Below, in pieces: positions 443-64,000 of a DNA stretch of 64,000 nt. The DNA is from Amoebophrya sp. A120 (taxonomy: Eukaryota; Protista; Dinoflagellata): the NCBI GenBank assembly GCA_905178155.1, contig CAJINV010000004.1, forward strand, positions 10,072,381 through 10,136,380, written 5' to 3'. The first letter of the stretch is position 1; every line of letters starts with the position of its first letter. Below the pieces are notes generated by a model. That model was not told the DNA's origin. It searched no databases and saw only the letters and a program-made list of their open reading frames with translations. A program made the translations under genes and the position numbers.

Positions 443-3400
443 TCGTCTGGAGAACTGCTGTGGAATCGCTAGCTGCGGTTGCGTTGAATCAGGATATTGT
501 GTCGACTGAGCCGCTATGCATTGCAAAAGTATCGTACTAGTGTAAATTGCATCACAAATTTTTTCAAGAAAAAAAATGGAAGTTGTAATGCTGATTTACC
601 TATGAGAGGAATATTTGTCATGCATGATAGCAATTACTACTAGTACGACACTTTTGCACAGGATAGCCGCAGCTACACGCAGTGATGATGTACCGCCAGC
701 GGTTGGACCTGCTCTCTAGACATGCCGGTAACCTATGCATTGCAAAAGTAAAAGTATCGTACTACTAGAAATAGCATTACAAATTTTTTCAGAAGGAAAA
801 ATGGAATTTGTAATGCTGAATAAGCTAGGGAACCAGATTTGCATTTGTCATGCATGACTGCAATTACTAAGAGTGCGATGCTTTTGCACAGGATATAATC
901 CGTTGCTCAACTACTTTTCATCTGCAGCTTCGGCACGAAGCACCACAGGAGCCTTGATGATGTCGCTACTTTTCAAGAACGACAAGAAGATGGCGAACAT
1001 TCCTGCGCACCAGCAACAGCATCCGCACCAGCTAGATGAGTCTCTCCTCCTGGACCTGTACCGCACCCAAGAGGCCGCGGACATGGTGCGAGCGGTTCTT
1101 TTGCAGACAGCTCAGGCGAACGGTCATTTTCTCCTTGACGAGGAAAACAAATCTTCTTCGTTTTCCTCCCCAGATGAAGAAAGTGAGGTTTTTTCCAACA
1201 CAGTCGATTTCGCGGAAGACGAGAAAGACGCCGTGATTGCGCACGTGATCGCCGTGTTGGTGTACCTAAAGTTGCAAGACAAGAACATCAGATCGGGAGG
1301 TCACCAGAGGACCGCTACCACTCGTCATGGTCATGATGATGTCCCTGCTGCTGGAGAAACTGACCCGGATGATGAACCCAAATTCTACGTCGAAATTGGG
1401 GTCGGCCCGGGTCCGATCGAGCACAACACGCGCGCGTTGCGCACCTGGCACGGGTACACCGGGCTGCTGCTAGACCCCACGTGCGATATGGATTACAAAT
1501 ATGTCTGGGTCTGGAAACTTGTAATGCTAAAAGTGAATGATAGATGACGCACTGCAATACGCAGCTATGCATGACAAATCTTTTGGCTGACCTGTCTTAC
1601 GTATTTCGCATGGCAAATTGCGTTTGTGCATGACAGGGAAGAGGGCCTTTTCGTGCCTATGCAGCACAGATTCTCAAGTCATGCCAGACAAGCATGACAA
1701 ACTTGCATTCTTCCAGACCCACACACTTTTGCATTTGATGTGCGACAACCCGCGACTGAATTGCCACCCGGAGGCGGTTTTTCCGGAGAACGTGTTGGAG
1801 CTGCTATCACAAGAAAAAAGTGCTGTTACAGTTACACATTGCGATGCAAGACCAGCAACAAGAGACAACCTTTGTCATGCAGGAAATGCTTGGGAGCCTC
1901 GTTTCCTTTCTGTTTTCCCACCTTATGATCTTCGCATTACAAGTTTTCTCTGCCACACGGAAAATTTGTGATGCAGAAACTCCAACAAATGTGTAACTGT
2001 AACACTTTTTTCTCGTGATAGCTGCTGGGAGATAAATATCAAGTTCCGGAGAAGTTTTCCCTCCTCTCCATCGACGTCGACGGGCAGGACTACTGGCTCC
2101 TGAAGAAAATTTTGGAGTCGAAGAGATTTTTCCCAGAAGTTCTCATCGTCGAACACGGATTATGGAGGTTGATTCAGGTCGCGATTGGTCGACGACAAAT
2201 GACCGGAAATATGGAGGTGCCCAGCCTGATAAAGAAGTTGCAGTGGACCGCAATTTAAATCACTTAAAATCCTGATATTTTTCAGCTTGTGTTGTTGTGT
2301 GATCTCCATTAATTTCATAAGCGGTTCAACTACAATCAAAGAATCGACTGTGCTCAACATACCATTTGGAGTACTTACAACTCACTGCTGTACTCGTGAT
2401 TGGGCCTTCAGGAAGAACCCACATTTGATTCTAGGAACCAGGAGCATCGGCTTCAGGAGGCGCACGAACTCCTGCAGAGAGGAGCCTCTCCAACAAAAAC
2501 ATTTTTGGCCGCGCACATAGCGCTCCGTGCAACACACTAAGTCACTCCGGCCATAATTGTGACGATTCCCCACCTGAAACACATCCATACCAACACGGTT
2601 TCTGGTGGCCGGCGCTGCAACTGCCGTTGGATTTGGAGGCGGTGCCGAAGAAACACGTTCTAGATGAATTGCTTGCGCCAGCATCTTATCAAGTGCAAAT
2701 ATGTCTGGGTCTGGAAGAGTGCATGTTTGTCATGCTTGTCTGGCATGGCTCTGAAATCTGTCATGCACGTTACCCAAGAGCCCCATTTTGCTGTCATGCA
2801 GAAACGCAGTTTGTCATGCAGAATAGGCAACACCTAGAACCTCAAAAGCTTGTCATGCTGCGCCAGCACTTGTGGCCTCTTCATGATACGCCATCCAGCA
2901 TCACAAGTTTCCAGGCCCAGACACTTTTACAATCCATACATCTCGCCGTCCTGCTCCTGCTGGAAGCGCAGTAGAAGATGCTGGGTTGAAGGATGATGAC
3001 GCAGCTGTGGCACCAGCAGCTGCTAGGAGAAGTACTGCGACATTTTCCGAAGCCGACCTCAACGCGATCTTCGAACAGAACAGAAACAGTGGAGATGAAA
3101 GAACGGATCCTGGCGAAGCGGTAGAAGAAACAGAGGACATCAACCTGAATGACGATGCGAATTCGAATGACGTGGGCGTTTACCCCGCGACGGCCAAGGC
3201 GCTGCTGAAACTGGCGAACCAACACGGATACACCCTCGTCTACTACGGGGACACGGATCTGATCTTTGTCCGCGAGGAAGAAAGTGTGGTCGCGCCAAAG
3301 CAGGAGGAGCTCCAAGGCCGCGAGACTACAAGCGTTGATGCAGTTGAGCACCAGAATATTAACGTTGTTCCGTACTACCAAACCGTCTTTCCGAACGCAA

Positions 3401-3552
3401 ATGACCTTCCCGCGCTGTGCAACCGGTATCGACAGTCCGAACGGGCGTGGAAACGAGATTTGAGATACAGTGAAAGCAGCTACTGCTTTGAAACGGCCGT
3501 GCAAGGGATCAGCAGAAGGTCTTTTCGGGAGAAGTATGTGAAGCCTGCTTGA
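443..3552 (+). CDS. FkbM-like SAM-dependent methyltransferase domain protein, 5'-partial, 6 internal introner introns
   Basis: Spliced translation is open: FYVEIGVGPGPIEHNTRAL..GYTGLLLDPTCD|NPRLNCHPEAVFPENVLEL|LGDKYQVPEKFSLLSIDVDGQDYWLLKKIL..PEVLIVEHG|FWWP..ALLKLANQHGYTLVY..DLIFVRE. The EIGVG, LSIDVDGxDY and GYxLV motifs are typical of FkbM-like proteins. Stop at 3550-3552. Confidence 0.8.
515..665. mobile_element. Introner family B
   Basis: TATGCATTGCAAAAGTATCGTACTAG...CTAGTACGACACTTTTGCACAGGATA; DR GCCGC; join EP|QLH in frame. Confidence 0.9.
734..895. mobile_element. Introner family B
   Basis: B-type TIRs; DR TAACC/TAATC; join GN|PLL in frame. Confidence 0.88.
1487..1740. mobile_element. 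Introner family A
   Basis: TATGGATTACAAATATGTCTGGGTCTGGAA...TTCCAGACCCACACACTTTTGCATTTGATG; DR TGCGA; join PTCD|NPR. Confidence 0.9.
1805..2020. mobile_element. Introner family G
   Basis: TATCACAAGAAAAAAGTG..TTACAGTTACACA / TGTGTAACTGTAACACTTTTTTCTCGTGATA; DR GCTGC. Confidence 0.92.
2161..2589. mobile_element. Introner family J (long, degenerate)
   Basis: TATGGAGGTTGATTCAGGT / ACCTGAAACACATCCATA. The 7-bp DR AACACGG (2152-2158, 2592-2598) is offset 2 nt from the TIRs; join VEHG|FWW in frame. Confidence 0.7.
2687..2938. mobile_element. Introner family A
   Basis: DR CATCT; close copy of 14321-14573; join APAS|RRP. Confidence 0.92.
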
Positions 3553-5376: not shown

Positions 5377-5494
5377 TATCCAGGAAAAACAGCCATCCCC
5401 ATCGAATTTGTCGATGCAAAACATGCATAGAATCAAAACCTTCCAGTGTTTGTCATGCAAAAAAAGGATGAGGATGGGTGTTTTTTCCTGGATA
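5377..5494. mobile_element. Introner/MITE family F
   Basis: TATCCAGGAAAAACAGCCATC...GATGGGTGTTTTTTCCTGGATA; DR AGTTG; host frame unclear. Confidence 0.88.
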
Positions 5495-7401: not shown

Positions 7402-7529
7402 TATCCTCTGCAAAAGTTTCGCACTCGTAGAAATGCAAGTCTTGCATTACAAGTCTTGTTAATTAAAAAGGCAAATCCGCATGACAAATTCTTGCAATTT
7501 ACACCAGTACGATACTTTTTCAATGCATA
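7402..7529. mobile_element. Introner/MITE family B (short)
   Basis: TATCCTCTGCAAAAGTTTCGCACT...AGTACGATACTTTTTCAATGCATA; DR TGTAA; no clear host frame. Confidence 0.8.
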
Positions 7530-8718
7530 TGTAAAGACAAACGTACAACAGCGGTAGAGTCGACTGGCGACGAGGGTGGCTCTTAGTCAGCAGGCTCTTG
7601 ATATGACAGTGCACAACCCCCACTCCCCCGCATGATGAGTAACGCCAAATGCGAAGTTCAGTGGCATTGCTTGCATGTGTTGCCTTGTGTTCCTGCCTGA
7701 ATGACAAGTTTCAGAAACTGCACAAACGATAATTACTAACTTACGACAGAAATCGGCGCAGGAGCCAGCGGCAGGAACAACTTGGCACACAGACAGGCTT
7801 CGTGTTCGCAATAATCGTTGGCGTTTCCGTGGCTTGTCATGCACATGCTCTTCAACTTCAAATGAGGGGGAGAGGTGTTTGTGTACTTTGATACAGAACC
7901 GCTGGAGGCTATGGGAGGAAGCGGAGCACGCGGCGCGTCGCAGCTTTTTACAACCAGCACCTCGTCGACACGATCTCGATTTACGGCGAAATACACTCGA
8001 CTACTAATGTCAATGCACTTCGCAAATATCCAGCCTCAATACAGTCAGATGTAGTATATGTAATGAATAAACTATAATTTGGATTTGCATGATCATGATG
8101 TATGCTCCTACCACAACTTTGTATTAATGTGCGCTATAGCATTTGCATCACGATCACCGTAGTTAATGCAGTTGACACACTAGCAGCTGCAGGACGAATG
8201 AATGATTTACTAGACGAGTCTGCATATATGCGAAGTGCTTGACAAGCGAAAATCATTATGCTCCCCTAAGGGCGGCTTCTGTTGTCTTTTAAGTGAGACA
8301 GAGCCAGCAGCATCATGTCTGCGACCCTTCTAAACTGTCCATTTCTTGTCCTACCAAGATGAGCTCGTCCTACCGAGTTAGTACGCTGAAAAAAAAGATC
8401 ACAACAATAAACGAAGCTGGGAACTACAGTTGTCGTCCCCGTGGTTGTTGACAACTCGTTGTCTTGATCAGCAGCGGCCTTGGTCGATGCTACAAGGTTG
8501 TTCTTTTTTTCGTTCAGCTACAAAAATATCGCTGTGCTGTCGTTATATATTATTTCGAGCAGACGGCTTTTGGATGATCAACAACAACATCAAGATCATC
8601 TTTACGAGGACGGAAATCTTTTTGCTAACGACGAGCAGACCCAGTTGTCTCGTTGACGCACTTGTCGTGTAGTGTGTAAAGCTGGAAGATCGTCAGTGGT
8701 ACGCCCGAGGCATTATTT

Positions 8719-10916
8719 TTGTTTCTCCTTATCATGATTTTTCAGCCCAACAAGCAGATAATGATTGGCCATATGGTCGTGATATTGAACTATTGGTGCC
8801 GAAGATGTCTGGAGGTGTTGGTGTTTTTCCCCCTAGTACAGATGATGAAAACAGGATGGCCGCTAGTTTGGTCGATCATGATGGCATTCGACACGCCTTT
8901 CTTCCTCGCCTTGACCACCACGACCACCTCCCTGACAAACTACAGCGGCCCTATCCAGGAAAAAACACCCATCCCCATCCAATTTGTGATGCAAAACATG
9001 TATAAAGTCCTGTGTTTGATGTCATGCACAAAATGGGTGTTTTTTCCTGGATAGGCCCTGGCGTGATACTAGTAGTGAACGCAGCAAGACCACGGCAATG
9101 GTCTCCGGATTCCCGGTCCTCCGGCGATTCCTCGGGCCAAGACCTGCGGTGGTGGTCAACCGGGCAGCGGGCTGCGAGTAGTGGTTTCACGAACCAGTGC
9201 GGAGACCGACTGGCTACAAGTAGCGATATTGTGCCGCTGAACTACGAACACTTTGCGCAGAAATTCAACACTTTTAAAATGAACCGCATACTGCTGTTCT
9301 CCCGGCAAATTATCGCGGCGAACGCCCAGCTGGGGCAAGCGGAATTTATGCTGTCCATGACTCCGGAACCGAGTGAGAGTCTGATTGGAAAAATCAGAGA
9401 CGAGCTATGAAATGCAATTGATATGCCAATGCCACAGTGGGTTGAGTGGCCCCGGAAGATTCGACTTTGAAATTTTTTGTATTGCAGAACATTAACAGCA
9501 CAGATGAGAAGGTGCAAAAAAATTGACCGTTTCTCACGAGACAGGAGACTACTTATTTGTATTGCGAAAATATCGTGTGCTTTCGCCAAAAATGCTCTTT
9601 ATTAGAAGCCTGCTCTGCAGTTTGAATCTGCAGAGTTTGCATCAATTATGCGAAGAAAGAAGTAAGTAATTGTGTAGGTCTAAGGGCGACCACGTCGAAC
9701 TACATGTGACTTTCCACGTAACAATAGACCACTTCTGAGGACTCCAATGGCAGAGCATTTTTGCATAGGATAGCCGCTTGAGAAGGTGCAGCAAAACTTT
9801 CTTCTGGAATACAACTTCGTTGCAGGACGAGAGCAGCACCCACCAACCGTTCCTTCCAACGACCGCGCTGCTGCCTATACCCCGCAGCAGATGATGCGCG
9901 ACGCGAAACTTCTACGAGACTGGCTGCAGCCACTCAAATCGCACCAAACGGAGCAGTTCTATTCTGATGGCACTGGGCGAGGATCCGGCGTTTCTCTCTT
10001 CGGCTATACCTCTGACTATTCCCTGAAATAAATGTACCATCCCCAACATCCACTCGCCTTGCACGATAAAAGAACAAAGCAGGCTCTTCTCCTGGTTTTG
10101 TATGACAAATTGGATGTTGCGGGTGGCCAAAGATTTTCAGGTGATACTGACGTCAACTGGAACGGTCATCCCGTCTGTAAACTGTACCAGAAAATCGCCG
10201 AAGTGTCCACGTATGGAAGCGTCAGGTTCGAAATCGTCAAAGTTGAAATAATCTGTAATGCATAAAATGCATGACCCGGGGTGCGTGTGTTGCAGAGCAG
10301 GCAAGTGAGGCCGATTGTAAGCCTGTTTGGGGTTACAGCTCGAGCTGCTAAAGTAGCATGAGAAAATCGCTCTTCTTTGCCTAAATAGCGTGACAGACTG
10401 GATTTAGGGACCGCTGAAGTTTGTCATGCGCCACTTGGAAACTGGGTTCCAACTGGCATCCATTTTATGCATGACAAATTATTTCAACTTTGTCGATTTC
10501 AACTCTGACACATCCATACCACGGTGGAGCATTTCATTCCTGCTGCGGCTAGTACTGGTGGTGGGCAAATGCCAGTCACGGGCCGCGGTGTAAACAAAAG
10601 CCGAGTTCCCCCCGCGACCGCGCTGCTCGGCTCCTCCATCTTCTGGCAGCAGAAGCTCGCCCCGTTTGTGGAATTCCGCCAGAACTTCTATTACGGGATC
10701 AGAAAAGTGGCGGAGTTCAACCTGGAGAGTGATGTCTTGGCGCGGGTGCGGAGCATCCAAAATGGCTTGCTAGTCACGGAAGAACAAGAACTACTGAAAA
10801 GCGTAGGACAAAATAGCTCGGCGCGCGGCAATAGGGGGCAAAACTACCACGCAGGCAGCTCCCCAGCAGCTCCCAGGTTCCCGCCCCTGGGGACACCTCG
10901 TAGCAGCAGACCGTAG
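8719..10916 (+). CDS. Hypothetical protein (~423 aa spliced, start uncertain), 4 introner introns
   Basis: ORF pieces 8719/9012/9786/10032/10524 join in frame (YSGP|GVI, RDE|LEK, TSD|VNW, VST|VEH); spliced length 1272 nt. Confidence 0.7.
8952..9053. mobile_element. Introner family F
   Basis: TATCCAGGAAAAAACACCCAT / ATGGGTGTTTTTTCCTGGATA; DR GGCCC. Confidence 0.92.
9406..9772. mobile_element. Introner family K (degenerate)
   Basis: TATGAAATGCAA..ATGCCA / TGGCAGAGCATTTTTGCATAGGATA; decayed DR CGAGC/GCCGC; removing 9406-9777 restores the frame. Confidence 0.65.
10017..10146. mobile_element. Introner family L
   Basis: TATTCCCTGAAA..CAACATCCA / TGGATGTTG..TTTTCAGGTGATA; DR CTGAC. Confidence 0.88.
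10212..10518. mobile_element. Introner family I
   Basis: TATGGAAGCGTCAG..AAAGTTGAAATAAT / ATTATTTCAACTTT..CTGACACATCCATA; DR CCACG. Confidence 0.9.
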
Positions 10917-12827: not shown

Positions 12828-12861
12828 GTAAATATTTCATTCCGTCTATACGTACTGGCTC

Positions 12862-15800
12862 ATGTGTGAATTGGATGTTTCGCGCCGATGGTGGTATAAA
12901 TATACGTCCCTCCCACAAGAACCAAGACCACAACAGGTATGCCCCCCCTGGGTAATCGAGTACCTATGCAATGCAAAAGCATCGCACTAGTATAAATCGC
13001 ATGACAAATTTCCTCAGCATGAAAAAGAAAATTTCTAATGCGGATTTCCCCTGAGAAAGAAATTTGTAATGCATGAATGCGATTAGTACGAGTACGATAC
13101 TTTTGCACAGGATAGTACCCTCTGATCGCCCATTTGGTATTGAAGCAGAGTCCGGAATTGTTTCAAACCTTCCCATATCAAATGCAAAAGTGTCTGGGTC
13201 TGGAACGTTGGAACTTGTGATGCTAACTTTGTCTTTGGACGACTCTAAAAAAATCTGCATTGCATGACCAGCAAGAGGAGCCACATTTGTGCTACGCGAG
13301 GAGGGCATTTGTCATGCGGAAATGGCATCAGGAAGCTTTCCAAAGAGAAAAATCTGTGATGCTGGGTCATGCATTACAAGCAAAGCATCATGGGTCATGC
13401 CAGAGGACAAGCAGGACAACCCTTCCATTCTTCCAGACCCCGACATTTTTACGTTCGATATCCCAAAAAAGCTCCGGTCGAATTTTCTCTACCTGCTCGA
13501 GGCCATCCGGCTGAACGAGAGAGATTCTTCGATAATCATATGATGATGAACTGCAAGAAAAGTAAAAGTATCGTACTCGTATAAATGCATTACAAATTTC
13601 CTCAGCATGAGAGAGAAAATTTGTAATGCGACTTTACCTCAAGAAAAATATTTGTAATGTTGCAAGTCTTGCATTTATACGATTGCGATACTTTTGCACA
13701 GGATAAATCAAGACCATCCGCAAGTTCCAATGCAGCTCCAATGAGGACGACACAAGTCATTTCACGGGCGGCCGGCAGTTGGTTCCTGTCGTACAACTAC
13801 AGCAGGGTACTAGTGAAGACACCAGGGAGGATGAAGAAATTGCCCTTGAGTATCATCATAATCAGGTGGACGACATCAAGAGGAAGAGCTACAGCATGTT
13901 CCACCAGGACGAGGCCGCCACGCTCTATTCTTCTCCTTCACCGTCAGCGTCACACACCATCAAGCTGCATAATCATTTGAAATTCCATCTGAACGCTTCT
14001 TGTTCGGCCCTCAACCTGCTTCGTGCCGTCCGTGCCAACGCAAATGTTCTGTTCGAGGACTGCTGGTGTTCGGTGAGCAAAGCAGCAGCTTTGAGGGAAA
14101 ATATTAGCGGAGCTGCGCAGCACGACAGCTCGCCGCCGAGCAACCCCCTCCAGTTGCTTGACGGGGCAGGAGGTGGACACGACGAGGAGGGCGCTGCAGC
14201 TGCTGATGTTGTAGTCAGCACACCTCCACAGCAGGTCGGCCAGTCGTCGACCTCTTGTTTTTACTGTCCGCCCGAGAATGTCGGATGGAATCCGAATGGG
14301 TTTTGGTACGCAAAGCCCGATATCAAATGTAAAAGTGTCTGAGTCTGGAAGAATGCATGTTTGTCGTGCTTGTCTGGCATGACTCTATAAATCTGTCATG
14401 CACGTTACCCAAGAGCTCCATTTTTCTGTGATGCAGAAACGCAGTTTGTCATGCAGAATAGGCAACACCTAGAAGCTCAGAAACTTGTCATGCTGAGCCA
14501 GCACTTGTGGCCTCATCATGAGACGCCACCCAGCATCACAAGTTTCCAGACCCAGACATTTTTACACTTGATACCCGATTTCCTTCAACTAATTGAATTG
14601 GCAGGCAGAAGCAGGAGTAGGGGAGCAGGCGTCGCGACTCCTGCTTCCTCTGGTGCTGCTGCACCTTCCGGAAGTAGAACATCGCAAGGTAGAAGTAGCA
14701 GTGGTGGTACGACGACAGCTAGTGACCATCAAGAAGCAGGTTCTACTTTTTTGTCCAGGCTCCGTCAGGAACCAGGGGACGAAGAGCACTGCCGCAAGGC
14801 AGCGGAAGAAGAAGAACGGAATAGAATCAACGTGATCAAAGACATCCTTCAGGAGGAGCAGCAGTTTGCGGAGTTTTCAAAATGCCGGGACCGGCTATGG
14901 CGTTCTCAACTGTTACATTCTCAAGTGTTACATGAATTTGTGATGCAAGAATGGAAAAAGTGAAAGGAGGAAGATTGCGCCTTTTGCAATACAAATTTTG
15001 CGCAGATTTTGGTGCTGTTTAGCCCTTCGCAAATTTGTCATGCGAAGCAGCTTGATCTTGGGGATGGTCATGGTATTTTTGCATGACAAATTAATGTAAC
15101 AGTTGAGAATGTAACGTTTGAGAACGCCATACCGGCTGCGGAAGTATTTGAAGAAAGTAGAGACACACGTGCTCCACAAATTCGTCGAGGCTTTTCACGA
15201 TCATTGCGATTTACCAGGACGTCGGGCACCGCTACCGGCGGCTACTTCTGACATTAAGATTGAGACTTTTTCTTCTACCGCCGCGGAAGATCATGAAGAT
15301 GACTTTGTCATTTTTGACAAACTCTTCGCCCTCGCGACCTTCGCTCCGTTCTACGGGAACTTGGCAGCGCGGCGCGAGCGTACGGGGTTGGATGAGACGG
15401 ACGGGGTGAGGCGCATGGCGATGGTGCTGTACAGCGAGACAACGGAAGCTTCGATGATTGAAGTTGCCCAAAAAGCCACGACCCCTGGCGAAGATCTGGT
15501 CAGTTTCCTGGCCGACCACGCCGGCGGTTCGGGGCAAGAAGTTGTGGTAGGCCAGCACGACAACTCTGACTCGTCGTCAAACGCGGCGAGAGGTCCCCGG
15601 CGTCCGAGCACGACTGCTCAGGTCGTTCGGCCAGTGGACTTGTTCCGAAAGTGGCTGCAAAAGGTGGTTGAAGCAAAACGCGTTGTGGGCTGCGACGACG
15701 TGGGGGCGAGGAAGCCGGACCGGGTTGCAGGACAAATGGATGAGGAAAAGAAGAACACAGCTACTGCAAAAACCACAAGAACCAGTCGTGTACTAGGAAA

Positions 15801-23009: not shown

Positions 23010-23609
23010 AAAATTATGGATTCGCATGCCTGTGGCCGCCCACGGCATCCAGGAAATAAAAAATCAATATGAAATCGTGCCTTTATCTCCATAGAAGAAC
23101 TGAGCGCAACTCTTTTATGTTGTAATCGAATCGCCCACGACCATTTTTCACATCAGCCAGAGTCATCTACACTACTCATTCCCATTCGATGAACACCTTT
23201 TTAACGTAGCTAGTAACAGTAGGCACGGACACGATCAATGTGTAGTTCTAGAAGTTTGTTGTGGGCGGCTCTTTGGCCAATTTTGTAGTTTTCCCCGGGA
23301 TAGCTAGAAGACGACTACGAAGAAGAAGATTACGAGGACGATGAAGACTTCGACGACAGTGACGAGGGAAGCGATCACGGTATAATCAGCTATTTGTACT
23401 TACATAGGCTAGAATCTGCTTGATTATATTTTTGACGTTCATTTTCGTTGGATTTGTGCTGATGGTGATGTGTTGTGGAAGTCGCTTCTGATACAGACGT
23501 ACGTTGTGGCAGTTTCTATCTGCTTTCTGGCCCTCTACGTCTCGTGCTTTGCGCTGCGGAAAGCTCTTCTTGAGAAGCAATCTTGGGCGCTCTTCTTGAG
23601 AACCAATCT

Positions 23610-25935: not shown

Positions 25936-25979
25936 CACCAGAGAAAAAGAACAGATATCGAGCAAGCACTTTTGCTGCA

Positions 25980-46800: not shown

Positions 46801-49800
46801 GGCTGCTGGAGGAGATGTTCCGCGAACAGAACGAACGACTCCAGTTATGCATTGCAAAATTATCGTACTAGCAGAAATCGCATTACAAGTTTCGGCAAGA
46901 AGAAAAGTGGAATTTGTCATGCTGTTTTACCCACCGGAGGAAGACTTGTCATGCATATTTGCAATTAGAATTACTACGAGTGCGATACTTTTGCGCAGCA
47001 TAACAGTCCCACCTTGCGGAAACCACCGCCATTCAGCAGCAGTCGGTCACGGAGCAGAATCTGCAAGAGCTGCTGAACCAGCAGACGAGCGAGGCTTCGG
47101 ACTTGCGGACGAAGCTTGAGCAGTTGCAGTCGGAAAAGGAAAAACTCGAGGACAAGCTAAAATCCCGCGAACAGCTATCCAAGAAAAAAACGTTGTTAGT
47201 GTAAATTAAAATTTGTGATGCGCAACATGCAAGATGATTGCGTCTGTCATGCTTGGCATGCATCGTAGGGTCCATTGAAGGGCGTTTTCGCGTAGTATCT
47301 GCGCATGACAGGTTTTTGCTGTCATGCCAGACAAATCTGTAATGCTGTTCCTCCAAAAAAGTAGTTAGAGTTGCGCCTACAATGTTTTTTTCTTGGATAA
47401 CAGCTCACGAAGATGAAGGCTCTGGAGCTCGAAGACCAGCTGAAACTGTTCGAGAACAAACTCCAGCTCGAAAAGCAGGCCCGCGCCGCGGAGGGACAGC
47501 AACGCGCGCAACTACTTGCGGACAAGGACCGGGCCTTCGAGAGCCTCCTCGCGGAGCACACGGAGCTGAAAACCTCGAAAGAAGCCGCGGACGCCCGGCG
47601 CGCCAACGAGGACGACGCGCTGCGCGCGGAGACGCAGGCGCAGCTGGAGGAGCGGCTGCGGGAGGAGGAAAACCAGAAGTTCCAGGAGTTGATGGCAAAT
47701 CAGGAGAACATGACAGCTATCAACTGCAAAAATGTCTGGGTGTGGAAACTTGTGATGCTGAAATGTGCATATACTGAAAGACTTCCCAATGCAGCCAAGC
47801 ATGACAAGTTTTCCGGACACTTTTTCATGCGCAGTTCGCATGAGAAACTGCCCTTTTGTATGACAGAAGGAGGTGTCGTTTTGTTAGTCATGCAATACAG
47901 ATTTTACAGGAATGTAGGACTAGCATCACAAGGTCAATGTTTCCAGACCCAGACATATTTGCAATGCATAACTGCCGAGGAATTGGAAAAGTTCGCTTTG
48001 GAGATGTCGGAGCGCGAAAACGCACACTTATCCCGCGCCGAACAGCTGGAGAAAGCGCACGAGAAAGCCCAGCAACTGATGCAGCAGCAGCGCGACTACC
48101 AGCGGAAAGCCCGCGAACGACTCCTCGCGCAATCCGCGAACCTCGCCGGCATGTTTGCGGCCGGGGACGACGACGACGCGACCGCGGAGGAGCGTCGGAT
48201 GATGCAGGCGACGCTCGCCCAGCGCATGATGGAAGCCATGCGGACCATGCAGGAACAGATGCTGGACCTGCAAGAGGAGCACGACGACGAGATCGCGCGG
48301 CAGAACCAAGCGCTGGAGGTGCTCCGCTCCACGCTGGAGGAGGACCGGCAGAAATTCGAAGAAAAACAACTGGAGATGGACGCGGAACACGAAAGAACCC
48401 GCGACCAGCTGAACGCGATCGCGGCGGAGCGGGACCTGGCGGAGAAGCGGTTATTGAGAGGAAAAATCCCCCCTCCCCATATCGAAAAGGTATGCTTCCG
48501 AAAATTTGTGGTGCAGATTTGTGACCACAAATCCTGTCTGTCTTGCGAGAAGGCAAATCCAGGCTCTCTGCCACTCTCTGCAGGCGATTTGTAATGCTGT
48601 AAGGACTATAGGACAGCCGTCTACCATGCTAGGCGCCTACACCAAAAGGCCCCTAACTAGGCTGGCGATCTGCGTGCAGTCCTCTACTGCAAGACAAATC
48701 TGATTTGTCATTTGTGTACGCTCTTGGCGGTCGGCTGTCTCCGGGTGTCCTTCCCAAGCTGTGGCTCGCGGCGTGGTGCGTTTGCCGGTGCCGACCCTTT
48801 TCTACGGAACGCTGTGGTGTCCTACTCTTCTGGCGGTCCTTCAAGAGCCCTTTCGCCTTCATCCCAGTGCTGTCGTTGACAGACCTTGGGCTGATAATCC
48901 CGTTGCAGGAGGTTCGGTCCTTGGCGCGTCTTCGCCACCGGCAGGAGTCAGGATGGGTAGATGGGTCTCCTCGTTGTTGCTTGAGCTTGCTCAGGTCTTC
49001 GCTGCTTTCGGTGGCTGGTGGCCGCTCTTGGGTTTCAGGTGTGGGTCGGAGTTCGTTTGCCTCTCGTCAGTTTGGACGGAGTGCTCTCGTTCAGCCACCC
49101 CCCGGCGGTCGACTGTCGGCGATCTGGCCCCCCCAGCTCATGATTGCAGTGTTGGCTGGTGATGACGAGGTTGCGGACAGTTGACTTGTCATCTGTCTGG
49201 TTCGCCCATTTTGCTGCCACGACTGTTTGGTCCCCGGTCCCCTGAGGCGGGGGGATACGGGTTACCTGGTCGGGATGTCGCGCGGAAGGTGTCTCTCACG
49301 TCCCTAGCTCTTCGTACTCGCCGCTGAGTACAGTCGAGCGCCTTGGTTGATCGCCACACTGTTTCATAGTGCTGAAACGACCCGGCTTTCACTAGGGGGA
49401 GCATTCGTACACTTTGTGCCCTCCGGGACTATGCCTCTGCTTCCGTCTAAACTGAGGGGTCCACTTATCCCTCTCGGTATTCGGTCGCAGGGAAGGGTTG
49501 CCGGGGTCTCCCTCGCATCGGTTCTCGATGTCGGGTGTGAGTTTGTGACTGCGGGGGCAGTGGTTGGCTTAGGTTTGCGGAGTACATCTGAAAAGAGGCT
49601 CCCATTCCTTCTTCCAGGTAGCGATCCTAGATCGCCGCCACGCGGAGCCACCCCCGTATTTCACCCCCAGGGGGTTGTGGACCTGGCAAAACCGATGAGT
49701 TCGGGCTGCTGACTGTTCCACTTCTTCCGAGCGCGATCATGCTACGCCTCACGCCTCACGCCTCACGCAAATCCAGCATCACAGATTTCCTTTGCGAGAT

Positions 49801-51586
49801 GGGGAGGGGGGATTTTTCCTTTTGATAGCGGTCCCAGGAGCTCCAGGAGTTCGTCTACTTTGGGTCCGACCAACCCGCGGAGTTTGGGCCGCCGGCCGCG
49901 GCCATGGCCTCGCAGCAAACCGTGATCGCGCAACCGATAATTGGCGCGATGCTGGCGGAGGAGGAGAATGTTGGGGAGTACAAGGCGTATTTAGATTCCG
50001 AGAAAGAGCGGCTGGAACAGGAGAAGCGGGAGCACGAGTTGGAACGCCAGCGGTACGACGAAAAGGTGTTTCAAGACCGCGTCAAGTTCGCGGAGACGGC
50101 CGAGCAGATGGAGCGGGAGCGGAAAGACCACAACGACCGCATGCAGGAGGAAAAAAACCGGATCTCAAACGACTACCAGACCCTGCAGCAGCAGATGGCG
50201 ATCTACGGCAGCTCCCTGAACGAAAAGCTGAAAGAGGTCGCGAAGCAGGGAACCACCATCACCGACCCCAACACGGGCGAGAAGTTCACGTTGGAACACG
50301 TCGAGGAGATCAAGCGCGAGCAGCAGATCCTCCGGCAAGCGCGCCTAGAAGACCAAATGCGATTGGAGGAGCTGAAGAACCAGCGGGATGAGGCTTTTGA
50401 AAAGCATTTGTCTGAGAAAGACGCGCACCGAGAAATCATCGCGCAGCTGGCGCAGGAACGCGACGCGCTGGAGGACCAGCTAAACAGCACAAAACTGGAG
50501 CTGGAAAGCCAAGCCCGAGCTGCAAAAGACCCGGACGCCGGGAAATCCTTGTTTGGGGGTATGTCTCTGCCCACGACCGGTGGCGTTTCCGTGTCGTTGC
50601 CAGGAGCAGGAAATATGCCCTCCATCGATGTAAGCAACCCGTTTGGGAGTGCTGGTGGGGCGGCGGGTGATGCAGCTTCTACTACTGCAGCGAACAATAA
50701 ACCTGCCGAAGAGGACAAGGACTACGCGATCATATTGAAACACACACGGGAAACGAAGCAGCGCGCCGTCGCCCGCTTAGATGCGTACAACGCGAAAGTA
50801 GCGGAGCTGAAGAAGAACGAAGCGAAAATGTCCGAAAGCGAAAAGCAGAAGGCTCGGAAGGACTTAGAAAAGATGGCGAAGGACGACGAGGCCAAGTCGC
50901 GGGAGGAGCTCGACGCACTGTTGAAGGAACGGCGGGTGATCGAACTCCGCAAGGCCGCGGCCGACCGCCGGACCACCGGCCAGGCCGACGTCGCGACCGC
51001 GAAAAGCAGCAAGGAGCAAATCGCGGCGCAAAACAAGCTGTCCGAGGTGGAAATGCGGAAGCGAGCCTTGCTGGAGGATCACTTTCACGACCACGGCGCG
51101 ACCGCGGTGAACAGCAACTTGGCCGCGGAGTACGCGAACTTGCACCGCAAGTCGCAGAAACTCGCCACGAAGGCCCGGCCGGGGGGCTCGTCCGCGGCCA
51201 CGAAGCCGCTCTACTACCAGGAGCGAGAGTTGCTCAGCGCGCGGATCATTAGCAACAAACTGGACCAGATTGCTAAGGGGGAAAGTGTGTTGTCGCGGAA
51301 TAACTATTTCGACTTTTCTTCGCCGAATATTGGGGTCGTGAGGAACAACCATGGTGCCGTGCTGTCGAGCGGAGCAGGCATCTTCGGTCCAGAGGAAATA
51401 CCAGGGTCGTTTGCGCAGCATCAAAATATCAACTACATGACCGCTCGAACAGCTGGACAAGAAGATGAAGATGAAGAAGAACCTCCAGTAGAGCAGCCAC
51501 CGCCCCTGCCGCAGCCAACTCTGTTCGGACTCATGATGCGCCAAGAGGCGCAGCGGCAACGCTCCATGTCACCGAACAGAATGTAG
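31822..51586 (+). CDS. Giant IQ-motif, coiled-coil protein (~5,167 aa), probably cytoskeletal or flagellar
   Basis: Twelve introners plus one GT-AG intron; every junction is in frame; spliced length 15504 nt. IQ motifs LQKWWRNVVARR and IQANFRGKKQR; about 3,000 aa of E/K/Q/A-rich coiled coil. Confidence 0.82.
32218..32479. mobile_element. Introner family A
   Basis: DR AGCAG; join WKQ|TDE. Confidence 0.93.
33168..33402. mobile_element. Introner family C
   Basis: DR CCCAA; join EP|KVH. Confidence 0.93.
33452..33738. mobile_element. Introner family E
   Basis: TATCGTATTTAAAAACGTCCCCAC / GTGGGGACGTTTTTACATAGGATA; DR CCGGC; relative of 59219. Confidence 0.93.
34064..34266 (+). other. Canonical GT-AG intron
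   Basis: ATC|GTATTG...CCTATCAG|GTC, in frame with the 34402 ORF. Confidence 0.75.
38481..38633. mobile_element. Introner family B
   Basis: DR GTGCA; join MV|HAQ. Confidence 0.93.
41678..41921. mobile_element. Introner family A
   Basis: DR AGGAT/AAGAT; close copy of 62231-62484. Confidence 0.92.
43595..43861. mobile_element. Introner family A
   Basis: DR GCCGA. Confidence 0.92.
44959..45221. mobile_element. Introner family A
   Basis: DR GAGGA. Confidence 0.92.
46432..46708. mobile_element. Introner family A
   Basis: DR CCGCG; join PGR|AQK. Confidence 0.9.
46846..47002. mobile_element. Introner family B
   Basis: DR CCAGT/ACAGT. Confidence 0.9.
47176..47399. mobile_element. Introner family H
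   Basis: TATCCAAGAAAAAAACGTTGT / ACAATGTTTTTTTCTTGGATA; DR ACAGC. Confidence 0.9.
47718..47970. mobile_element. Introner family A (in frame, stop-free)
   Basis: DR ACAGC/ACTGC; ORF 47413-48594 reads straight through it. Confidence 0.9.
48452..49827. mobile_element. Introner family D carrying a ~1-kb nested insertion
   Basis: D-type TIRs; DR GCGGT; the two halves match 63327-63648; join EKR|SQE. Confidence 0.9.
48722..49764 (+). mobile_element. Probable 5'-truncated non-LTR retroelement (LINE/SINE-like)
   Basis: Absent from other D copies; 3' tail (ACGCCTC)3; ACGC on both sides; the peptide VPTLFYGTLW is reminiscent of LINE ORF2 C-terminal regions. Confidence 0.55.
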
Positions 51587-58372: not shown

Positions 58373-61300
58373 ATGGTCGCAGCTCCGGCAGGGCCGACGG
58401 CGACGAATGGCACGACAACCGTGTCAACTGCATCTTCGGGCCAGAACGGGATGAAAGACCACCGGAAAGTAATCGACCTCACCAAAAACAAGAATGGCGA
58501 CACCTTGGACCCCCGCATTGCGGAGGAGTTCGAGCCGGTATTTGCCTTGGAGTACGAAAAAGTCCCGGTATCGATGGTAAAGCACAAAAAGACCGGGATT
58601 TCTATGGCGTTCTCAAACGTTACATTCTCAACTGTTACATGAATTTGTGATGCAAGAACAGCAACAGTGAAAGTGGCAACGTTGCAACTTTCGCATCGCA
58701 GATTTTCCACAGATTATCATGCTGTTTAGCCCTTCGAAAATTTGTCATGCTAAGCACCTTGATCAAGTGGAGGGCAATGGCAATTTTGCATGACAAATCC
58801 ATGTAACAGTTGAGAATGTAACGTTTGAGAATCCCATAATTTCCATCTGTCTGGCCGAGGTGAAATCGCCGTTGGTCAACGGTTACGCATTGCAAATATG
58901 TCTGGGTCTGGAAGATTGCAACTTGTCATGCTGAGTCTGGATCATGCAAAAATTTGCGTTGCATGATTACCAAAAGATGTCCACCACTTTTGACCAGATT
59001 GACAGGGAGTCTCTCATGCAGGATAGGCATGATAGACACGACCTCACAGCATTTGTCATGCTAGGTGCTGCATTCCAGGCCTGATGGGTGTCATGGAAAA
59101 ACTGCATCACAAATCTTACATTCATCTTTCAGACTGAGACATATTTGCATTTCATAGCGGTTACTTTTCCGTCCACACCGAAGCAGACGACGACTACGGC
59201 TGTCCGCACACGCTGGAGTATCGTATTTAAAAACGTCCCCAGCTGCCCATACTTGTAATGCAAATCTGCACACGACTGAAAATGTTTCTCATGCGGAGCC
59301 CCATGAGAAGGATTTTCTAGTCGTCTTTTGCAATTTGTCATGCTCCAATCGGCATGATGTACTAGATCAGTGATGCTGCTGAGCTAGCTAAAACAGCACT
59401 ACACTTTGAGTGGTTCAAATTTGTCATGCAAGACAGCCAAACCGTGTGGATTTGTCTAGCCGATTCGCCATCTTGACGTATGGGGTGGGGACGTTTTTCA
59501 ATAGGATATGGAGCACCTCATCTTTATGGGCTCGAAGAAGTACCCCTACAAGGGAATCTTGGATTTACTGGCGAACCAATGCTTGGCGCAAGGAACGAAT
59601 GCCTGGACAGACACGGACAACACGACCTATACGGTATGCAGTAAGTTTTTGTAAAACTACAAACCACAGTTCGTTGCGGGACAGTTTTGACGTACATCAT
59701 CTTGATCCGCTTTATCAAATTTTGCTTTGTATTGTATCAGGATCAGCATTCAAGTTGTAACGCATCAAGAGTGTGCTTAGAAGTACACATGCTTCTAGTT
59801 TGCATTGGAAATGCAAAAGCAAAAGGACACTGAATGTTGTAGTTCTACTTGACCAGCAAGAAGTTGCGAAATTTTGATAAAATATCAATCAGATCGAAAC
59901 CGCTGGTGCCGAGGGGTTTCTGCAGATTTTTCCGATCTACATGGACCACCTCCTGTTTCCCACCCTGACGGACAGTGCGTTTGTCACGGAAATCCACCAC
60001 ATTGATGGCGAAGGGGTGGATTCCGGAGTGGTGTATTGCGAGATGCAAGCGCGGGAAAACGAGATGGATGACGTGCTCGAGTACGAACGGCGTCAGATGC
60101 TCTTCATATGGATTGCAAAAGTATCGTACTCGTACGTAATTGCTATCATGCATGACAAATTTCTTCCCTTCTAAGGTAAAACAGCATTACAAATTTCAAA
60201 TTTGTAATGCTGAGGTAAATGTGTAATGCAATTTATACCATGCAATACTTTTGCAATGCATAGTTCACAGACCAGAACAAGTCCCTGAAATCCGAAACGG
60301 GCGGGCGGCTGCGGGAACTCCGGGACATCACGAACAAACAAATCCAGGACTACCACAAGGCCTACTACGCGCCGAACAACATTTGCTGCATCGTCTGCGG
60401 GCAGTGCGAGTTGGGGGATTTGTGCAGGGTGCTGCTGCCGGTATTGGACCGGTACCCGTTGGAACTCTTGGACCCGAAGAACCCGGCCAACGTGCTGCTG
60501 AAAGCCCGGCCGTTCTCTACCCCGATGGAGAAATTGAGGACGAACCAGTACAAGGAAACTGTTTTTCCCGCGGAGGACGACGAGGCGGGCGGCTGTGTGC
60601 AGATCTCCTGGTTCGGCCCCAAATGGGCGGACTTCGACGGAATTCTCGCCTGTGAAACCCTGTTGAGCTACTTCACCAAGGATAGCATCTCCCCCTTGCG
60701 AAAGCGGTTCTCCGACCCGCCGGAGGAGTTGCAGATGGAGCCGCTCTGCGCGACGGTCGGGTTCGGCAAGCTGGAGGTGTCAGAAACGGTCTTCACATTG
60801 GAGCTAGAAAACATCAACCTGGAGAACCTCGGGCTGTACCTACACAGTACTACTGCGACCTCCACCTCCGACGGAAGCAAATCCAAATCGCCAGGAACTA
60901 CAAACAAAATCGACGAGGCCGTCGTGAAAGTATTCGAAGAGGAGGTCGACAACTTGGATTTGCAGCGCCTGCGCTCCTTGCTAGAGCTGGGCAAGCGGAA
61001 GCACCTGCAACGCCTCGAGGGGTCGCCGCACGATGCGTACAGCGACTTTCTCATTTCCGAGTTCCTGTTCGGGCCGTCGTTTGACCACCACAATGACGTA
61101 GATGTAGAGGGGAACAAGAAGATGACGACCAATGGGACAACTTCTCAGGAGCCCGGGTCCGTCCTCCTAGCCAACATGTCGAAGATCGAGCGTTTCGACC
61201 GGTTGCTAGCCTGGACGGACGAGCAGTGGAAGCAGGTTTTGCGTTCGGTTTTCATTGACAACCAGCGGGTTTGCTTATTTGGGAAGCCGTCCAAGGAAAC

Positions 61301-63959
61301 CGCCGAGAAATTGCAAAGCGACGAAACGAAACGGCTCGACGCGCAGAAAGACCAACTGGGCGAGGAGGGAAAAAAGCAAAAGGCGGACCAGCTGACCCAT
61401 ATGGATTGCAAAAATGTCTAGGTCTGCATCAATGCAGACGTTTGTGATGCAGGTTTTGCATGACCCGGAGTGTCTGGCATGCAGGACCAGCATCACAGGT
61501 TCTTCGAGAGCTTCACGATGCCTACTCTGCATCACAAATCCGCTCTCACCCTGCCCAAACATAAGTACACAGCTTTTGCTGTTTGTGCAACACAGATTTT
61601 GTGTGATCTGAAATGCGCATCACAAGTTGCCATCCTCCTCGCCCAGACATATTTGCAATGCATAACCCAAGCGGATGCGCAAAACGGGATCGACCCGCCC
61701 AAGGAGGTTTTGGCGACCAGCATCGAGCCGCCCGATTTGCGGAAAGTGGAGTTGATCGCCTGCAAAACGGAGCAGCTCGTCGCCCACCGCCGGGGCGCCA
61801 CGCCGACGGCAAGGATTCAGATCGACAGCATCGAGGGGGCGCAGTTCTGCTATGAATTGCAAAAGTATTGTACTCGTAGTGATTGCATTCATGCATTACA
61901 AATCTCTTTCTCAAGGTCAATCAGCATTGCAAATTTGATTTGTAATGCTGGGCTGATTTGTAATGCAATTTTCCCTAGTGCGATGCTTTTGCAATGCATA
62001 TCTGCGACATTCGGTTGATTTTCAAATTGCCAGAGGGAAGAGGTGAACTGCGGGAACTGATTACCATCTGGCGCGAACTGGCGTTTCAAAGTCCGTTGAA
62101 AAAATCGAACCTCGGACCGGCGACTACAGCCGAAGAAACGGTGAAACTTGTCACGGAAGTGTTCAACAACTCCAGCTGCTGCCCGTCGCAGGGGAAAAAT
62201 TCCGGGTCTACCTGGGGGGCCGGACCGATCTATGGATTGCAAAGATGTCTGGGTCTGGAAACTTGTGATGCTAAAATGTGGATGATGGAAACAGTTCCGA
62301 ATGCAACACAGCATGACAACTTTTCAGAACGCTTTCTCATAGGAAATCCGCGTGAGAAACGGCGTTTTTGCGTGTACCAAAGAGGCTGCGACTTTTGTTG
62401 GCTATGCAATACAGATTTGCTAGGTATGGAGAGCTAGCATTACAAGTTGCAACCTTCCAGACCCAGACACTTTGGCGTTTGACACGATCGGGACAGACGC
62501 GATTTTCTTCTACGCCAAGGTGGCAAAAGAGGATTTGGTGAAGGGAACGAAACTGTTGCTACGCATCAAAGAAGACGTGGTGTTCACGCACGAGAAAGTG
62601 AAATTGGCGATTTCGAGAATTCTCAACGTGTTACCTCAGGAGAAACGCCAGGGGTGGAGTTTGTGCTGCTTAGCCGGGCGGGCGTTGGTGTACGACGATC
62701 GGAGCATGCAGAAAGTGAATTCCTGGCCGAAGATCTTGGCGCAGCTGAAAATGTTTGCCACGGGGAAGGATGAATCGGGGGCGGGTGAAGACGAGGATGG
62801 CAGCGAGGATGAGGAAGGCGGGGAGGAAGAGGAGGACGATGAAGCCATGCCCGATGCTGCTGATAATGATGACCAAGGCAAGAATACATCTGACAGCAAA
62901 AATGACAAGGATTTCTCCCCCGCCCCCCGCACCTCCGACGTGACTATGGAGGGCACGACGCCGGCGGATGAAGAGATGCTGCCAGAGGTTTATGGAATGC
63001 AAAAATGTCTGGGTCTGGAAGAATGCAAGATTTGTGATGCAGGTTTTCCATGACCCATGAGGTCTGGAATGCGAGACCCAGCATGACAGATTCTCTGAGG
63101 TCTTTATCATGCCTTTCCTGCATGAGAAACTCCCTCTCAACTTGGTCAAAAGGGGACAGCTTTTGGCACTCATGCAACACAGATTTCTGCATGATTCGGA
63201 TTTAGCATGACAAGTCGCAATCTTCCGGACCTAGACATATTTGCAATGCATAAGGTTGACGAGGCGACAAAACAGGCGAAAATCGAGGAAATGATCGGTG
63301 GCTTGGGAGAACTGCAGAAGGCGCTGTATCGTAAAGAAAAATCCCCCCTCCCCATATTGAAAACGCACCGTCCTGAAAATTTGCGTTGCAGATTTGTGAC
63401 CACAAATCCGGTTTGTCATGCAAGAAGGCACCTTTAGGCTGTCCCCCGCGTTATGTAGGCGATTTGTAATGCTGTAGGGCCTACAGGGCAGACGTCTGCC
63501 ATGCTAGGCGCCTACAGCAAGAGGCCCCTGTCTAGGCTTGCGATCTGCGTGCATTGCTCTACTGCAAGACAGATTTGATTTGTGTACAGAAATTCCGCAT
63601 CACAGATTTCCGTTTTGATATGGAGAGGGGAGATTTTTCATTTTGATACACTGTCCACGGTCGCGATGCACGTTGGCGGGGATTTGGCCGAGTTGCTGGA
63701 CAAGACCACCCCGCAACACAAGTTTTTCACCGAAGACCTGTGGACCGACCTTTGCTCCACACGGTACACACCGCTACCGACCTGGACCTGCCTGGCGATT
63801 GAGTGTGACGAGACGAAGAAGAGCACCTTGTTGCAGGCAAATGATAATGAGGAACAAACAGCGAGCACCACAAATACTGCAACGAATGAAAATTCATCCC
63901 CCTGCGGCATCGTTGTCTACGCTTCTTCCATCGAGTCCAACTACCTGCGGATGCAAACC
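58373..63959 (+). CDS. M16C-type zinc metallopeptidase (insulinase/presequence-protease-like), 3'-partial
   Basis: Spliced: KHKKTGIS|ICLAEVKSPLVNG|YFSVHTEADDDYGCPHTLE|HLIFMGSKKYPYKGILDLLANQCLAQGTNAWTDTDNTTYT|IETAGAEGF..SGVVYCEMQARE..DYHKAYYAPNN. Contains HxxEH, NAxT and GVVYxEM motifs. Confidence 0.92.
58603..58838. mobile_element. Introner family C
   Basis: DR ATTTC. Confidence 0.93.
58884..59156. mobile_element. Introner family A (TAC start variant)
   Basis: DR ACGGT/GCGGT; interior is the reverse complement of the 62991 type. Confidence 0.9.
59219..59508. mobile_element. Introner family E, splits HxxE|H
   Basis: DR TGGAG. Confidence 0.94.
59634..59892 (+). other. Canonical GT-AG intron
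   Basis: ACG|GTATGC...AATCAG|ATC joins TTYT|IETAG, as expected for M16C. Confidence 0.82.
60107..60262. mobile_element. Introner family B
   Basis: DR CTTCA/GTTCA. Confidence 0.9.
61400..61664. mobile_element. Introner family A
   Basis: DR ACCCA. Confidence 0.9.
61851..62000. mobile_element. Introner family B
   Basis: DR TCTGC. Confidence 0.92.
62231..62484. mobile_element. Introner family A (ACA end variant)
   Basis: DR CGATC. Confidence 0.92.
62991..63252. mobile_element. Introner family A
   Basis: DR AGGTT. Confidence 0.92.
63327..63648. mobile_element. Introner family D
   Basis: DR CGCTG/CACTG. Confidence 0.92.
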
Positions 63960-64000
63960 TATCCCACGAAAAAAGTGTTACAGTTACACATTTGTTGCTG
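63960..64000. mobile_element. Introner family G, left TIR only (window edge)
   Basis: TATCCCACGAAAAAAGTGTTACAGTTACACA matches the 1805-2020 TIRs. Confidence 0.8.

Follow-up and report, generated by a model that had tools for sequence, protein, structure and literature searches.

Introners of Amoebophrya sp. A120 are missing, together with five further bases, from probable transcripts and are likely cut from pre-mRNA at a fixed distance from a predicted hairpin

The closest described counterparts of the elements treated here are the introners of Amoebophrya sp. A120. In this genome, the gene models of which were built from transcript alignments, introners carry inverted repeats composed of TAT, seven variable bases and three or more A, are flanked by direct repeats of 3-5 nt (5 bp in Fig. 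S19), form a hairpin and show RNA-seq-supported non-canonical removal (Farhat 2021; PMC7789003). The portions of that paper cited here report that no transposase was found, argue against mobilisation by a transposase, call the exact exon/intron border unknown or variable (legend of Fig. 3) and describe the families as strain-specific, A25 being compared with A120 (PMC7789003). The A120 rows of a later survey list mostly DNA elements with terminal inverted repeats (TIRs), of unknown superfamily and ~105-320 bp in length. Family 38 of A120 has integrase-like open reading frames (ORFs) and the annotation "5-bp TSD, TA/TA Termini", and the automated lengths of the target-site duplication (TSD) in A120 are mixed, 2-6 bp (Gozashti 2025; PMC12130899). 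Introns of another Amoebophrya are described as mostly canonical (PMC12005148). Amoebophrya removes tens of thousands of non-GT-AG introns, with no U1 small nuclear RNA (snRNA) detected.

Here a window of 64,000 nt from Amoebophrya sp. A120 (contig CAJINV010000004.1; all coordinates are window positions) was analyzed. Its introners were found to be absent, with five more bases, from probable transcripts, and they are likely cut from the pre-mRNA at a fixed distance from a predicted hairpin. Judged by their sequence, the window elements are the introners already published for Amoebophrya, so that neither their existence nor their anatomy is new. A window exon is 100% identical over the whole query to Amoebophrya sp. 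A120 protein P0002, and P0002 matches the spliced ORF across six elements. All five characteristics of the A120 introners were found: the end motif, repeats of 3-5 nt, non-canonical removal from probable transcripts, hairpin families without a transposase, and an A120 host. The first-pass annotation of this stretch had noted that introners are known in Amoebophrya and that the phenomenon is probably not new; the shared organism label, end motif and 5-bp repeats bear this out. The introner observation itself is confirmed as real and well supported.

Several points differ from the published descriptions. The border called unknown or variable by Farhat 2021 is narrowed here by mismatched repeat copies; an internal 9-mer shared by the elements was found here, whereas the cited portions of that paper mention none; and families described there as strain-specific also occur in a related genome. 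Compared to the families of Gozashti 2025, which are likewise TIR DNA elements and of which family 38 shares the 5-bp TSD and TA/TA termini, no window element has an integrase-like ORF, and the duplication is 5 bp throughout instead of 2-6 bp. The additions made here are thus the cut inside the duplication, the dispensability of repeat identity, the shared 9-mer and the families common to a related genome, and the value of the analysis is in its way of mapping the cut, in the 9-mer and in the shared families. Figs S19-S25 of Farhat 2021 may already contain the cut geometry or the 9-mer.

Transcript evidence came from contigs of four runs (X3-X6), which stem from a single sample of one study and are probably RNA, a status that is guessed. 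The window was covered by contigs only; the raw RNA runs X9 and X10 gave 0 and 4 reads, respectively. In the gene for an M16-type metallopeptidase (region 58.1-64 kb) the element length plus 5 nt was missing at 9/9 elements in X3, X4 and X5 contigs, as was claimed in the first-pass annotation, which had the elements precisely removed with one direct repeat; in X6 contigs 8/9 are listed as skipped at this length. The ordinary GT-AG intron at 59634-59892 was absent from the same contigs, and X3-X6 contigs cover the region unevenly. Element 5377 was skipped in X3 (123 nt) and crossed intact by a contig of the DNA-like run X1 (contig depth about 43-45), which also crosses 9406-9772 intact. Seven further X3 piece ends coincide with element-plus-repeat edges, and the bin depth at 7602-7893 was 8.6, the value predicted if the element is skipped (8.6) and not if it is kept (19.5). 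Elements in both orientations are missing from the probable transcripts. Most joints at 1.3-21 kb are seen as contig piece ends only, and the five elements at 46.4-49.8 kb have no bridging contig among those listed. One X3 contig kept the degenerate element 4875-5098, in which TAT/ATA pairing is lost, and skipped the intact element 5377, which fits a need for intact ends.

Reading frames point to the same removal. With each of the 44 elements then known removed together with 5 nt, the longest ORFs were 4,704, 1,984, 925 and 893 amino acids (aa). Removal of 0, 3, 4, 6, 7 or 10 nt instead gave no ORF longer than 1,622 aa, and removal of 8 nt, which keeps the same frame as 5, gave 4,112 aa. When elements were tested singly, +5 yielded the strictly longest ORF at 37/46. 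The remaining 9/46 favoured another offset by this crude measure, although four of these nine (5377, 58884, 59219 and 63327) show the +5 removal in run contigs. Elements 5377, 7402 and 7602 lie outside any long ORF. A retained element leads to a stop or frameshift at 42/43 coding sites. A GT/GC/GA-AG or AT-AC placement is possible at 8/46 elements (random insertion sites, 7.0 +/- 2.4) and a GT-AG placement at 2/46 (random insertion sites, 1.9). At the inferred cut GT-AG occurs in 0 or 1 of 46, and the window elements as a group lack the GT/GC-AG ends of U2-type spliceosomal introners. The absence of a fixed GT/AG pair at the element ends, as first annotated, is in line with these chance-level counts.

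A strict scan (TAY...RTA ends, at least 13/20 complementary bases, exact 5-bp flanking repeat) detected 29 elements, compared to none in 19 and one in 1 of 20 shuffled Markov windows. Relaxed scans, an end profile and an ends-only scan brought the complete elements to 46. Beyond these there are two elements left incomplete by the window edges or a nested insert (right end 442; left end 63960) and a degenerate pair (4875-~5098 and ~22997-23302), which makes the original estimate of about 48 a fair one. Elements occupy 17% of the window (44 counted at that step). Lengths are 102-429 bp, in agreement with the annotated 102-430 bp, apart from one outlier of 1,376 bp with a nested insert. The ends are TAT..ATA in 43/46 (exceptions TAT..ATG, TAC..ATA and TAT..ACA), TA stands at start and end in 44/46, and the motif TAT, seven variable bases, AAA holds in position matrices of 74 window ends and 686 locus ends, the loci being those of the related genome described below. 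The 5-bp flanking repeat is exact in 33/46 and has one mismatch in 8, two in 2 and three in 3. It fits a TSD, because the left copy takes 43 different sequences among the 46 elements. BLAST grouped the elements into 15 clusters (12, 14, 4, 3, 2 and 2 members and nine singletons), close to the about 12 families first proposed; the two largest (12 and 14 copies) are present in both orientations, while the host genes all lie on the + strand. G/C occupies position 2 in 80% of the window repeats; a target-site preference for it was not upheld, since the signal is weaker in the larger locus set (168/291). An Rfam search of the window and a search of viral contigs with two element patterns gave no match.

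The same families were found, at up to 93% identity, in a scan of metagenome_contigs, which returned at least 145 stretches, making up 137 loci (798 kb) that overlap in part. All of the 73 loci listed come from contigs with one accession prefix. They represent another genome, because an exon of locus L015 is only 79% identical to its A120 ortholog P0003. Family proportions among the loci are biased, because the scan pattern picked one family. An exact 5-bp repeat flanks 304/426 distinct locus elements and a repeat of 6-9 bp flanks 0/426. For 345 locus elements with usable flanks a confident joined frame was obtained in 3, 80 and 3 cases with 4, 5 and 6 retained bases, respectively, and L015 is colinear with P0003 after +5 removal at most junctions. 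Two locus elements are lengthened and have exact 5-bp repeats, L004:505-1608 (1,104 bp, with an internal insert) and L013:6184-6998 (815 bp). The features of the window are listed below with the evidence for each; strand is given for the two features that have one, and DR denotes the direct repeat.

172..442: right part of an element, left end not in place (truncated/nested); 80-89% identical to locus copies, P0002 enters the window frame directly after 442
515..665: element, ~150-bp family, exact DR; junction agrees with P0002
734..895: element, ~150-bp family, DR mismatch at position 4 (synonymous); scans, P0002
1487..1740: element, ~255-bp family, right end ATG; profile scan, P0002
1805..2020: element, singleton; strict scan, P0002
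2161..2589: element, 429 bp, DR mismatches at positions 2, 3 and 5, cut after 3 or 4; P0002
2687..2938: element, ~255-bp family; X3 contig piece begins at 2939, P0002
4875..5098: degenerate element, right end decayed, end approximate; 72-73% identical to locus copies, X3 contig 10 unspliced over 4190-5370
5377..5494: element, no long ORF; X3 skips 123 nt, present in X1
7402..7529: element, no long ORF; strict scan, X3 piece stops at 7396
7602..7893: element, DR mismatches at positions 2, 3 and 4, no long ORF; ends-only scan, bin depth
8952..9053: element, 102 bp; strict scan
9406..9772: element, DR mismatches at positions 1-3; profile scan, X1 contig crosses unspliced
10212..10518: element; strict scan, X3 piece begins at 10519
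12965..13114: element, ~150-bp family, in the 1,984-aa ORF; strict scan, ORF joining
13176..13460: element, ~255-bp family; strict scan, ORF joining
13539..13705: element, ~150-bp family, lengthened left end; profile scan, ORF joining
14321..14573: element, ~255-bp family; strict scan, ORF joining
14896..15131: element, ~236-bp family; strict scan, ORF joining
16269..16518: element, ~236-bp family; strict scan, X3 piece begins at 16519
18256..18412: element, left base kept at the DR mismatch in position 2; X3 piece stops at 18252, contig continues
18953..19102: element, ~150-bp family; strict scan, ORF joining
19146..19473: element, ~325-bp family; strict scan, X3 piece begins at 19474
20707..20862: element, ~150-bp family; strict scan, X3 piece stops at 20701
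22693..22911: element, DR mismatches at positions 2 and 3; cutting ahead of position 3 would create a TAG stop in the likely frame
22997..23302: degenerate element without left TAT, start approximate; profile scan, no match in loci
26695..26852: element, DR mismatches at positions 2 and 5; profile scan
30102..30363: element; strict scan, ORF joining
32218..32479: element, ~255-bp family; strict scan, ORF joining
33168..33402: element, ~236-bp family; strict scan, ORF joining
33452..33738: element, ~290-bp family; strict scan, ORF joining
38481..38633: element, ~150-bp family, in the 4,704-aa ORF; strict scan, ORF joining
41678..41921: element, ~255-bp family, DR mismatch at position 2; relaxed scan, ORF joining
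43595..43861: element, ~255-bp family; strict scan, ORF joining
44959..45221: element, ~255-bp family; strict scan, ORF joining
46432..46708: element, ~255-bp family; strict scan, ORF joining
46846..47002: element, ~150-bp family, DR mismatch at position 1; relaxed scan, ORF joining
47176..47399: element; strict scan, ORF joining
47718..47970: element, ~255-bp family, DR mismatch at position 3; relaxed scan, ORF joining
48452..49827: element of 1,376 bp, ~325-bp family, nested ~1.05-kb insert; profile scan, BLAST, no Pfam match
58373..63959, + strand: host gene for an M16-type metallopeptidase with nine complete elements; PF05193 (E 5.5e-8), spliced contigs
58603..58838: element; joint 58597-58839, 241 nt skipped = 236+5
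58884..59156: element, left position-1 base kept; joint 58879-59158, 278 nt skipped = 273+5
59219..59508: element; 295 nt skipped = 290+5
59634..59892, + strand: ordinary GT-AG intron, 259 nt, internal RNA control; absent from the same contigs
60107..60262: element, left position-1 base kept; 161 nt skipped = 156+5
61400..61664: element; 270 nt skipped = 265+5
61851..62000: element; 155 nt skipped = 150+5
62231..62484: element, right end ACA; 259 nt skipped = 254+5
62991..63252: element; 267 nt skipped = 262+5
63327..63648: element, left position-2 base kept; 327 nt skipped = 322+5
63960..64000: left end of an element that runs past the window edge; X3, X5 and X6 contigs switch to other sequence at 63959

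An exact repeat conceals the junction; the 13 elements with mismatched copies serve as markers of the cut. Contigs keep the left base at position 1 for 58884 and 60107 and at position 2 for 63327 and 18256, and stop avoidance indicates that the left base is kept at position 3 for 22693. At 2161-2589 protein P0002 is compatible only with a cut after position 3 or 4, the right base being kept at position 5. P0003, the A120 ortholog of L015, fits the left base at position 2 and weakly fits the right base at position 5. In locus L041, encoding a PF05903 peptidase, the left position-4 base gives NVYH and the right one NVYP. The His better fits the family motif, a weak hint for the left base at position 4. 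A cut after position 3 or 4 is consistent with six window junctions in total, of which one bounds the right side. The cut thus probably falls inside the duplication, with left positions 1-3 and right position 5 kept in the exon and the intron running from 1-2 nt before TAT to 3-4 nt after ATA. A cut 1 nt before and 4 nt after has a slight edge; every intron, whichever way the element points, would then read N-UAU(G/C)...UUU..(G/C)AUA-NNNN, which places U at +2 and a run of U close to the 3' end. That elements with 3/5 mismatches (2161, and 7602 by depth) are still removed argues against repeat identity as the signal; more likely, the distance from the inverted ends sets the cut. Of the interpretation first proposed, the transposon-like, non-GT-AG nature of the introns and their precise removal with one repeat length stand; the boundary signal as first worded, TIR hairpin plus direct repeat, is not supported in view of these same two elements. 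A fixed spacer of 1/4 or 2/3, if true, narrows the candidate machinery and permits comparison with the experimentally defined spacers of Euglena. Mismatched repeat copies are natural cut markers, with which existing RNA reads could fix the geometry genome-wide.

Several observations weigh against a single fixed cut at this place. The limit on the right side derives from one annotated protein junction and one weak ortholog comparison, and position 4 is backed by the hint from L041 and by no RNA joint. A codon-likelihood test on the loci fails to place the cut. Its preference at position 1 is for the right copy (16 vs 4, sign p 0.012), opposite to the RNA contigs. Synonymous mismatches are more frequent at positions 4-5 (25/40) than at positions 1-3 (22/59; p 0.015), an excess that may reflect wobble of the cut. 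Contigs drop rare variants and would hide wobble or retention, and X3-X6 represent one sample of guessed RNA status. The codon-likelihood and mutation-direction tests for the exonic copy were set aside as uninformative and, at position 1, contrary to the RNA. A skew of mismatches to positions 1-3 among the first 44 window elements (13/15, p 0.027) was attributed to chance, the distribution in the loci being flat (22, 22, 15, 20 and 20). For the position-4 comparison an ortholog search with L017 gave no match, the position-4 junction of L015 lies within an insertion relative to the ortholog, the L041 search yielded only P0004, an unspliced ORF in a one-member cluster, and the L041 exon had no match in PDB. 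The P0004 ORF is 94% identical to the L041 exon (L041:496-818) and continues into a similar element at the same site, which suggests an insertion shared with a further strain or allele.

With regard to the mechanism, the inverted ends would pair into a hairpin in the pre-mRNA, the hairpin would supply the boundaries, and a modified spliceosome lacking the usual U1 recognition would cut at a fixed distance from the ends. The ends pair in 44/45 predicted folds (median z -6.7, 8 shuffles each), and TTT occurs 9-18 nt before the 3' end in 42/46 elements. A120 has U2, U4, U5 and U6 and 83/89 spliceosomal proteins, no U1 snRNA being detected (PMC7789003). A modified spliceosome guided by the hairpin, to which we give about an even chance, is preferred because this core is present and because the 1/4 geometry would place U at +2 and a run of U at the 3' end whichever the orientation. 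It has to contend with fold covariation at 1/31 pairs, with the fact that inverted ends pair by construction, with the lack of any base preference at the first or last intron position, which fits a spliceosome poorly, with the failure to find a branch point, and with a U1-70K homologue in A25 (PMC12787238). In somewhat more speculative terms, and with a probability we put below one half, splicing may work as a ruler that reads no base at the cuts and needs no matching duplication, cutting 1 nt before and 4 nt after a TAT/ATA stem that, in either orientation, offers a donor-like UAU(G/C) together with a run of U. Any such transposon would be a ready intron, the geometry would have been reached independently in Euglena, and one protein binding the 9-mer GCATNACAA may serve all families.

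The close rival, because there is no base rule at the cuts, is a spliceosome-independent route in which the same hairpin ruler is served by a structure-specific endonuclease that cuts the RNA and a ligase that seals it, a route like the one proposed for euglenid nonconventional introns. The end pairs are indeed diverse (36 and 34 different ones among 46 for the two possible cuts), removal works in both orientations, the short 5' and longer 3' spacers parallel N3 and N5-6 of Euglena (PMC12501133), and euglenid introns yield non-lariat circles (PMC11282704). Euglenid nonconventional introns further share a MITE-like (miniature inverted-repeat transposable element) origin, paired ends, the absence of GT-AG and, as far as the few informative window junctions indicate, a spacer-set cut with the 5' spacer shorter than the 3' spacer (PMC12501133; PMC11282704). 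However, their motif is CDG/CH'G with N3 and N5-6 spacers, compared to TAT/ATA with 1-2 and 3-4 nt in the window, and the euglenid exon is reported to start with a purine, whereas all four bases occur here (18 or 23 of 46 pyrimidines for the two cuts). No cutting or joining enzyme for such a route was identified, A120 has a near-complete spliceosome (PMC7789003), and the donor-like start of the 1/4 geometry and the TTT near the 3' end argue for spliceosomal removal, so that the spliceosome-independent route is considered the less likely one, though a serious competitor.

The remaining explanations are far less probable than hairpin-guided removal from RNA. Excision from DNA in some life stage, as with the internal eliminated sequences (IESs) of ciliates, would turn the spliced contigs into products of rearranged templates. 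The TA-bounded ends and transposon-like build would suit it, and rare precise joints could escape among the X1 joints, of which the best 15 of 644 are listed. IES excision leaves one TA behind. At the joints seen here both TA ends are removed, X1 contigs cross 5377-5494 and 9406-9772, the skipping contigs also lack the GT-AG intron and cover the gene unevenly, and published A120 introns have RNA-seq support (PMC7789003), which makes DNA excision very improbable. A strong hairpin with short direct repeats is the classic setting for template switching by reverse transcriptase, and all transcript evidence here is likely derived from cDNA. Junctions produced in this way are slightly less credible still, considering the ORFs broken by retained elements, the 3/80/3 frame test in the second genome, the colinearity of L015 with its ortholog and the removal of elements despite 3/5 repeat mismatches. 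Least probable of all is the use of cryptic ordinary GT/GC/GA-AG sites near the ends: the canonical-like placements at 8/46 elements, 2 of them GT-AG, are matched by random insertion sites, and the nine observed joints equal element length plus 5, only one of them allowing GT-AG. With these joints the use of cryptic sites is already contradicted.

The elements share a 9-mer, GCAT[GTC]ACAA. Both orientations counted, 105 copies fall within the elements (11 kb) and 7 within the remaining 53 kb. It is present in 42/44 window elements, across unrelated families, and in 331/343 exact-repeat locus elements, where the first copy usually lies 30-50 nt from an end. Its variable centre and subterminal position suggest a candidate protein-binding site, on DNA or RNA. 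A role as branch point was rejected as the main reading, since the transcribed strand does not always carry the 9-mer near the 3' end. The papers among the matches listed do not contain the 9-mer, and titles and abstract openings of the listed literature on Amoebophrya splicing, transposases and the 9-mer indicate no resolved mechanism. A single 9-mer at 27106 lies inside an apparent ordinary intron and is perhaps the relic of a decayed element.

The elements are likely non-autonomous DNA transposons, short copies of which would insert with a 5-bp duplication. An integrase-like DDE transposase acting in trans is suggested by the 5-bp duplication and the TA..TA ends and is, by a small margin, our favoured agent of spread, the 9-mer being a likely protein-binding site. 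Against this, neither the window nor the long elements checked yielded a transposase, and Farhat 2021, in the portions cited, likewise found none in A120 and argued against transposase mobilisation. Four ORFs of the nested insert in the 1,376-bp element and five ORFs in the two long locus elements (L004 and L013) had no Pfam match, and the first ESM Atlas match of a nested-insert ORF (0.82) had no family. IS3EU/GingerRoot elements have TA..TA termini, as do 44/46 elements here, and an integrase-related DDE transposase, the type of mobiliser likely here as well. Their TSD is usually 6 bp, compared to 5 bp here, and the cited parts of their description do not present them as introns (PMC10045372). 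Membership is not claimed, because of the 6-bp duplications there. Introners of Micromonas and Aureococcus are also non-autonomous TIR elements turned introns, but those of Aureococcus have canonical splicing motifs (PMC7789003), which the A120 window elements lack. The nested insert itself (~48720-49768, ~1.05 kb) has a 4-base flanking repeat and terminates in a 7-bp unit repeated 3.6 times. It resembles a truncated retroelement, without Pfam or Atlas support; X4 and X6 contigs cover parts of it, one with 2 differences.

Other parts of the window harbour further repeats and genes. A long gene at 31822-51586 (ORFs of 508 and 4,704 aa, charged and coiled-coil-like) contains 11 elements, and its stretch at 46-51.6 kb has almost no cover in the probable RNA contigs. 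A unit of ~2.45 kb is tandemly duplicated (52.9-54.4 kb and 55.4-56.9 kb), each copy with an element-free ORF of ~367-370 aa, the first of which had no Pfam match. At 23615-25899 a 94-bp unit is repeated in tandem ~24 times (83% matches); this array is satellite-like and has no counterpart in the loci. Tandem repeats of a pyrimidine-rich 16-bp unit occupy 6204-6308 and 6677-6735 in a strongly T-skewed region. The degenerate insert at ~22997-23302 sits in an acidic coding stretch, the frame of which suggests that it is removed, perhaps as a GA-AG intron.

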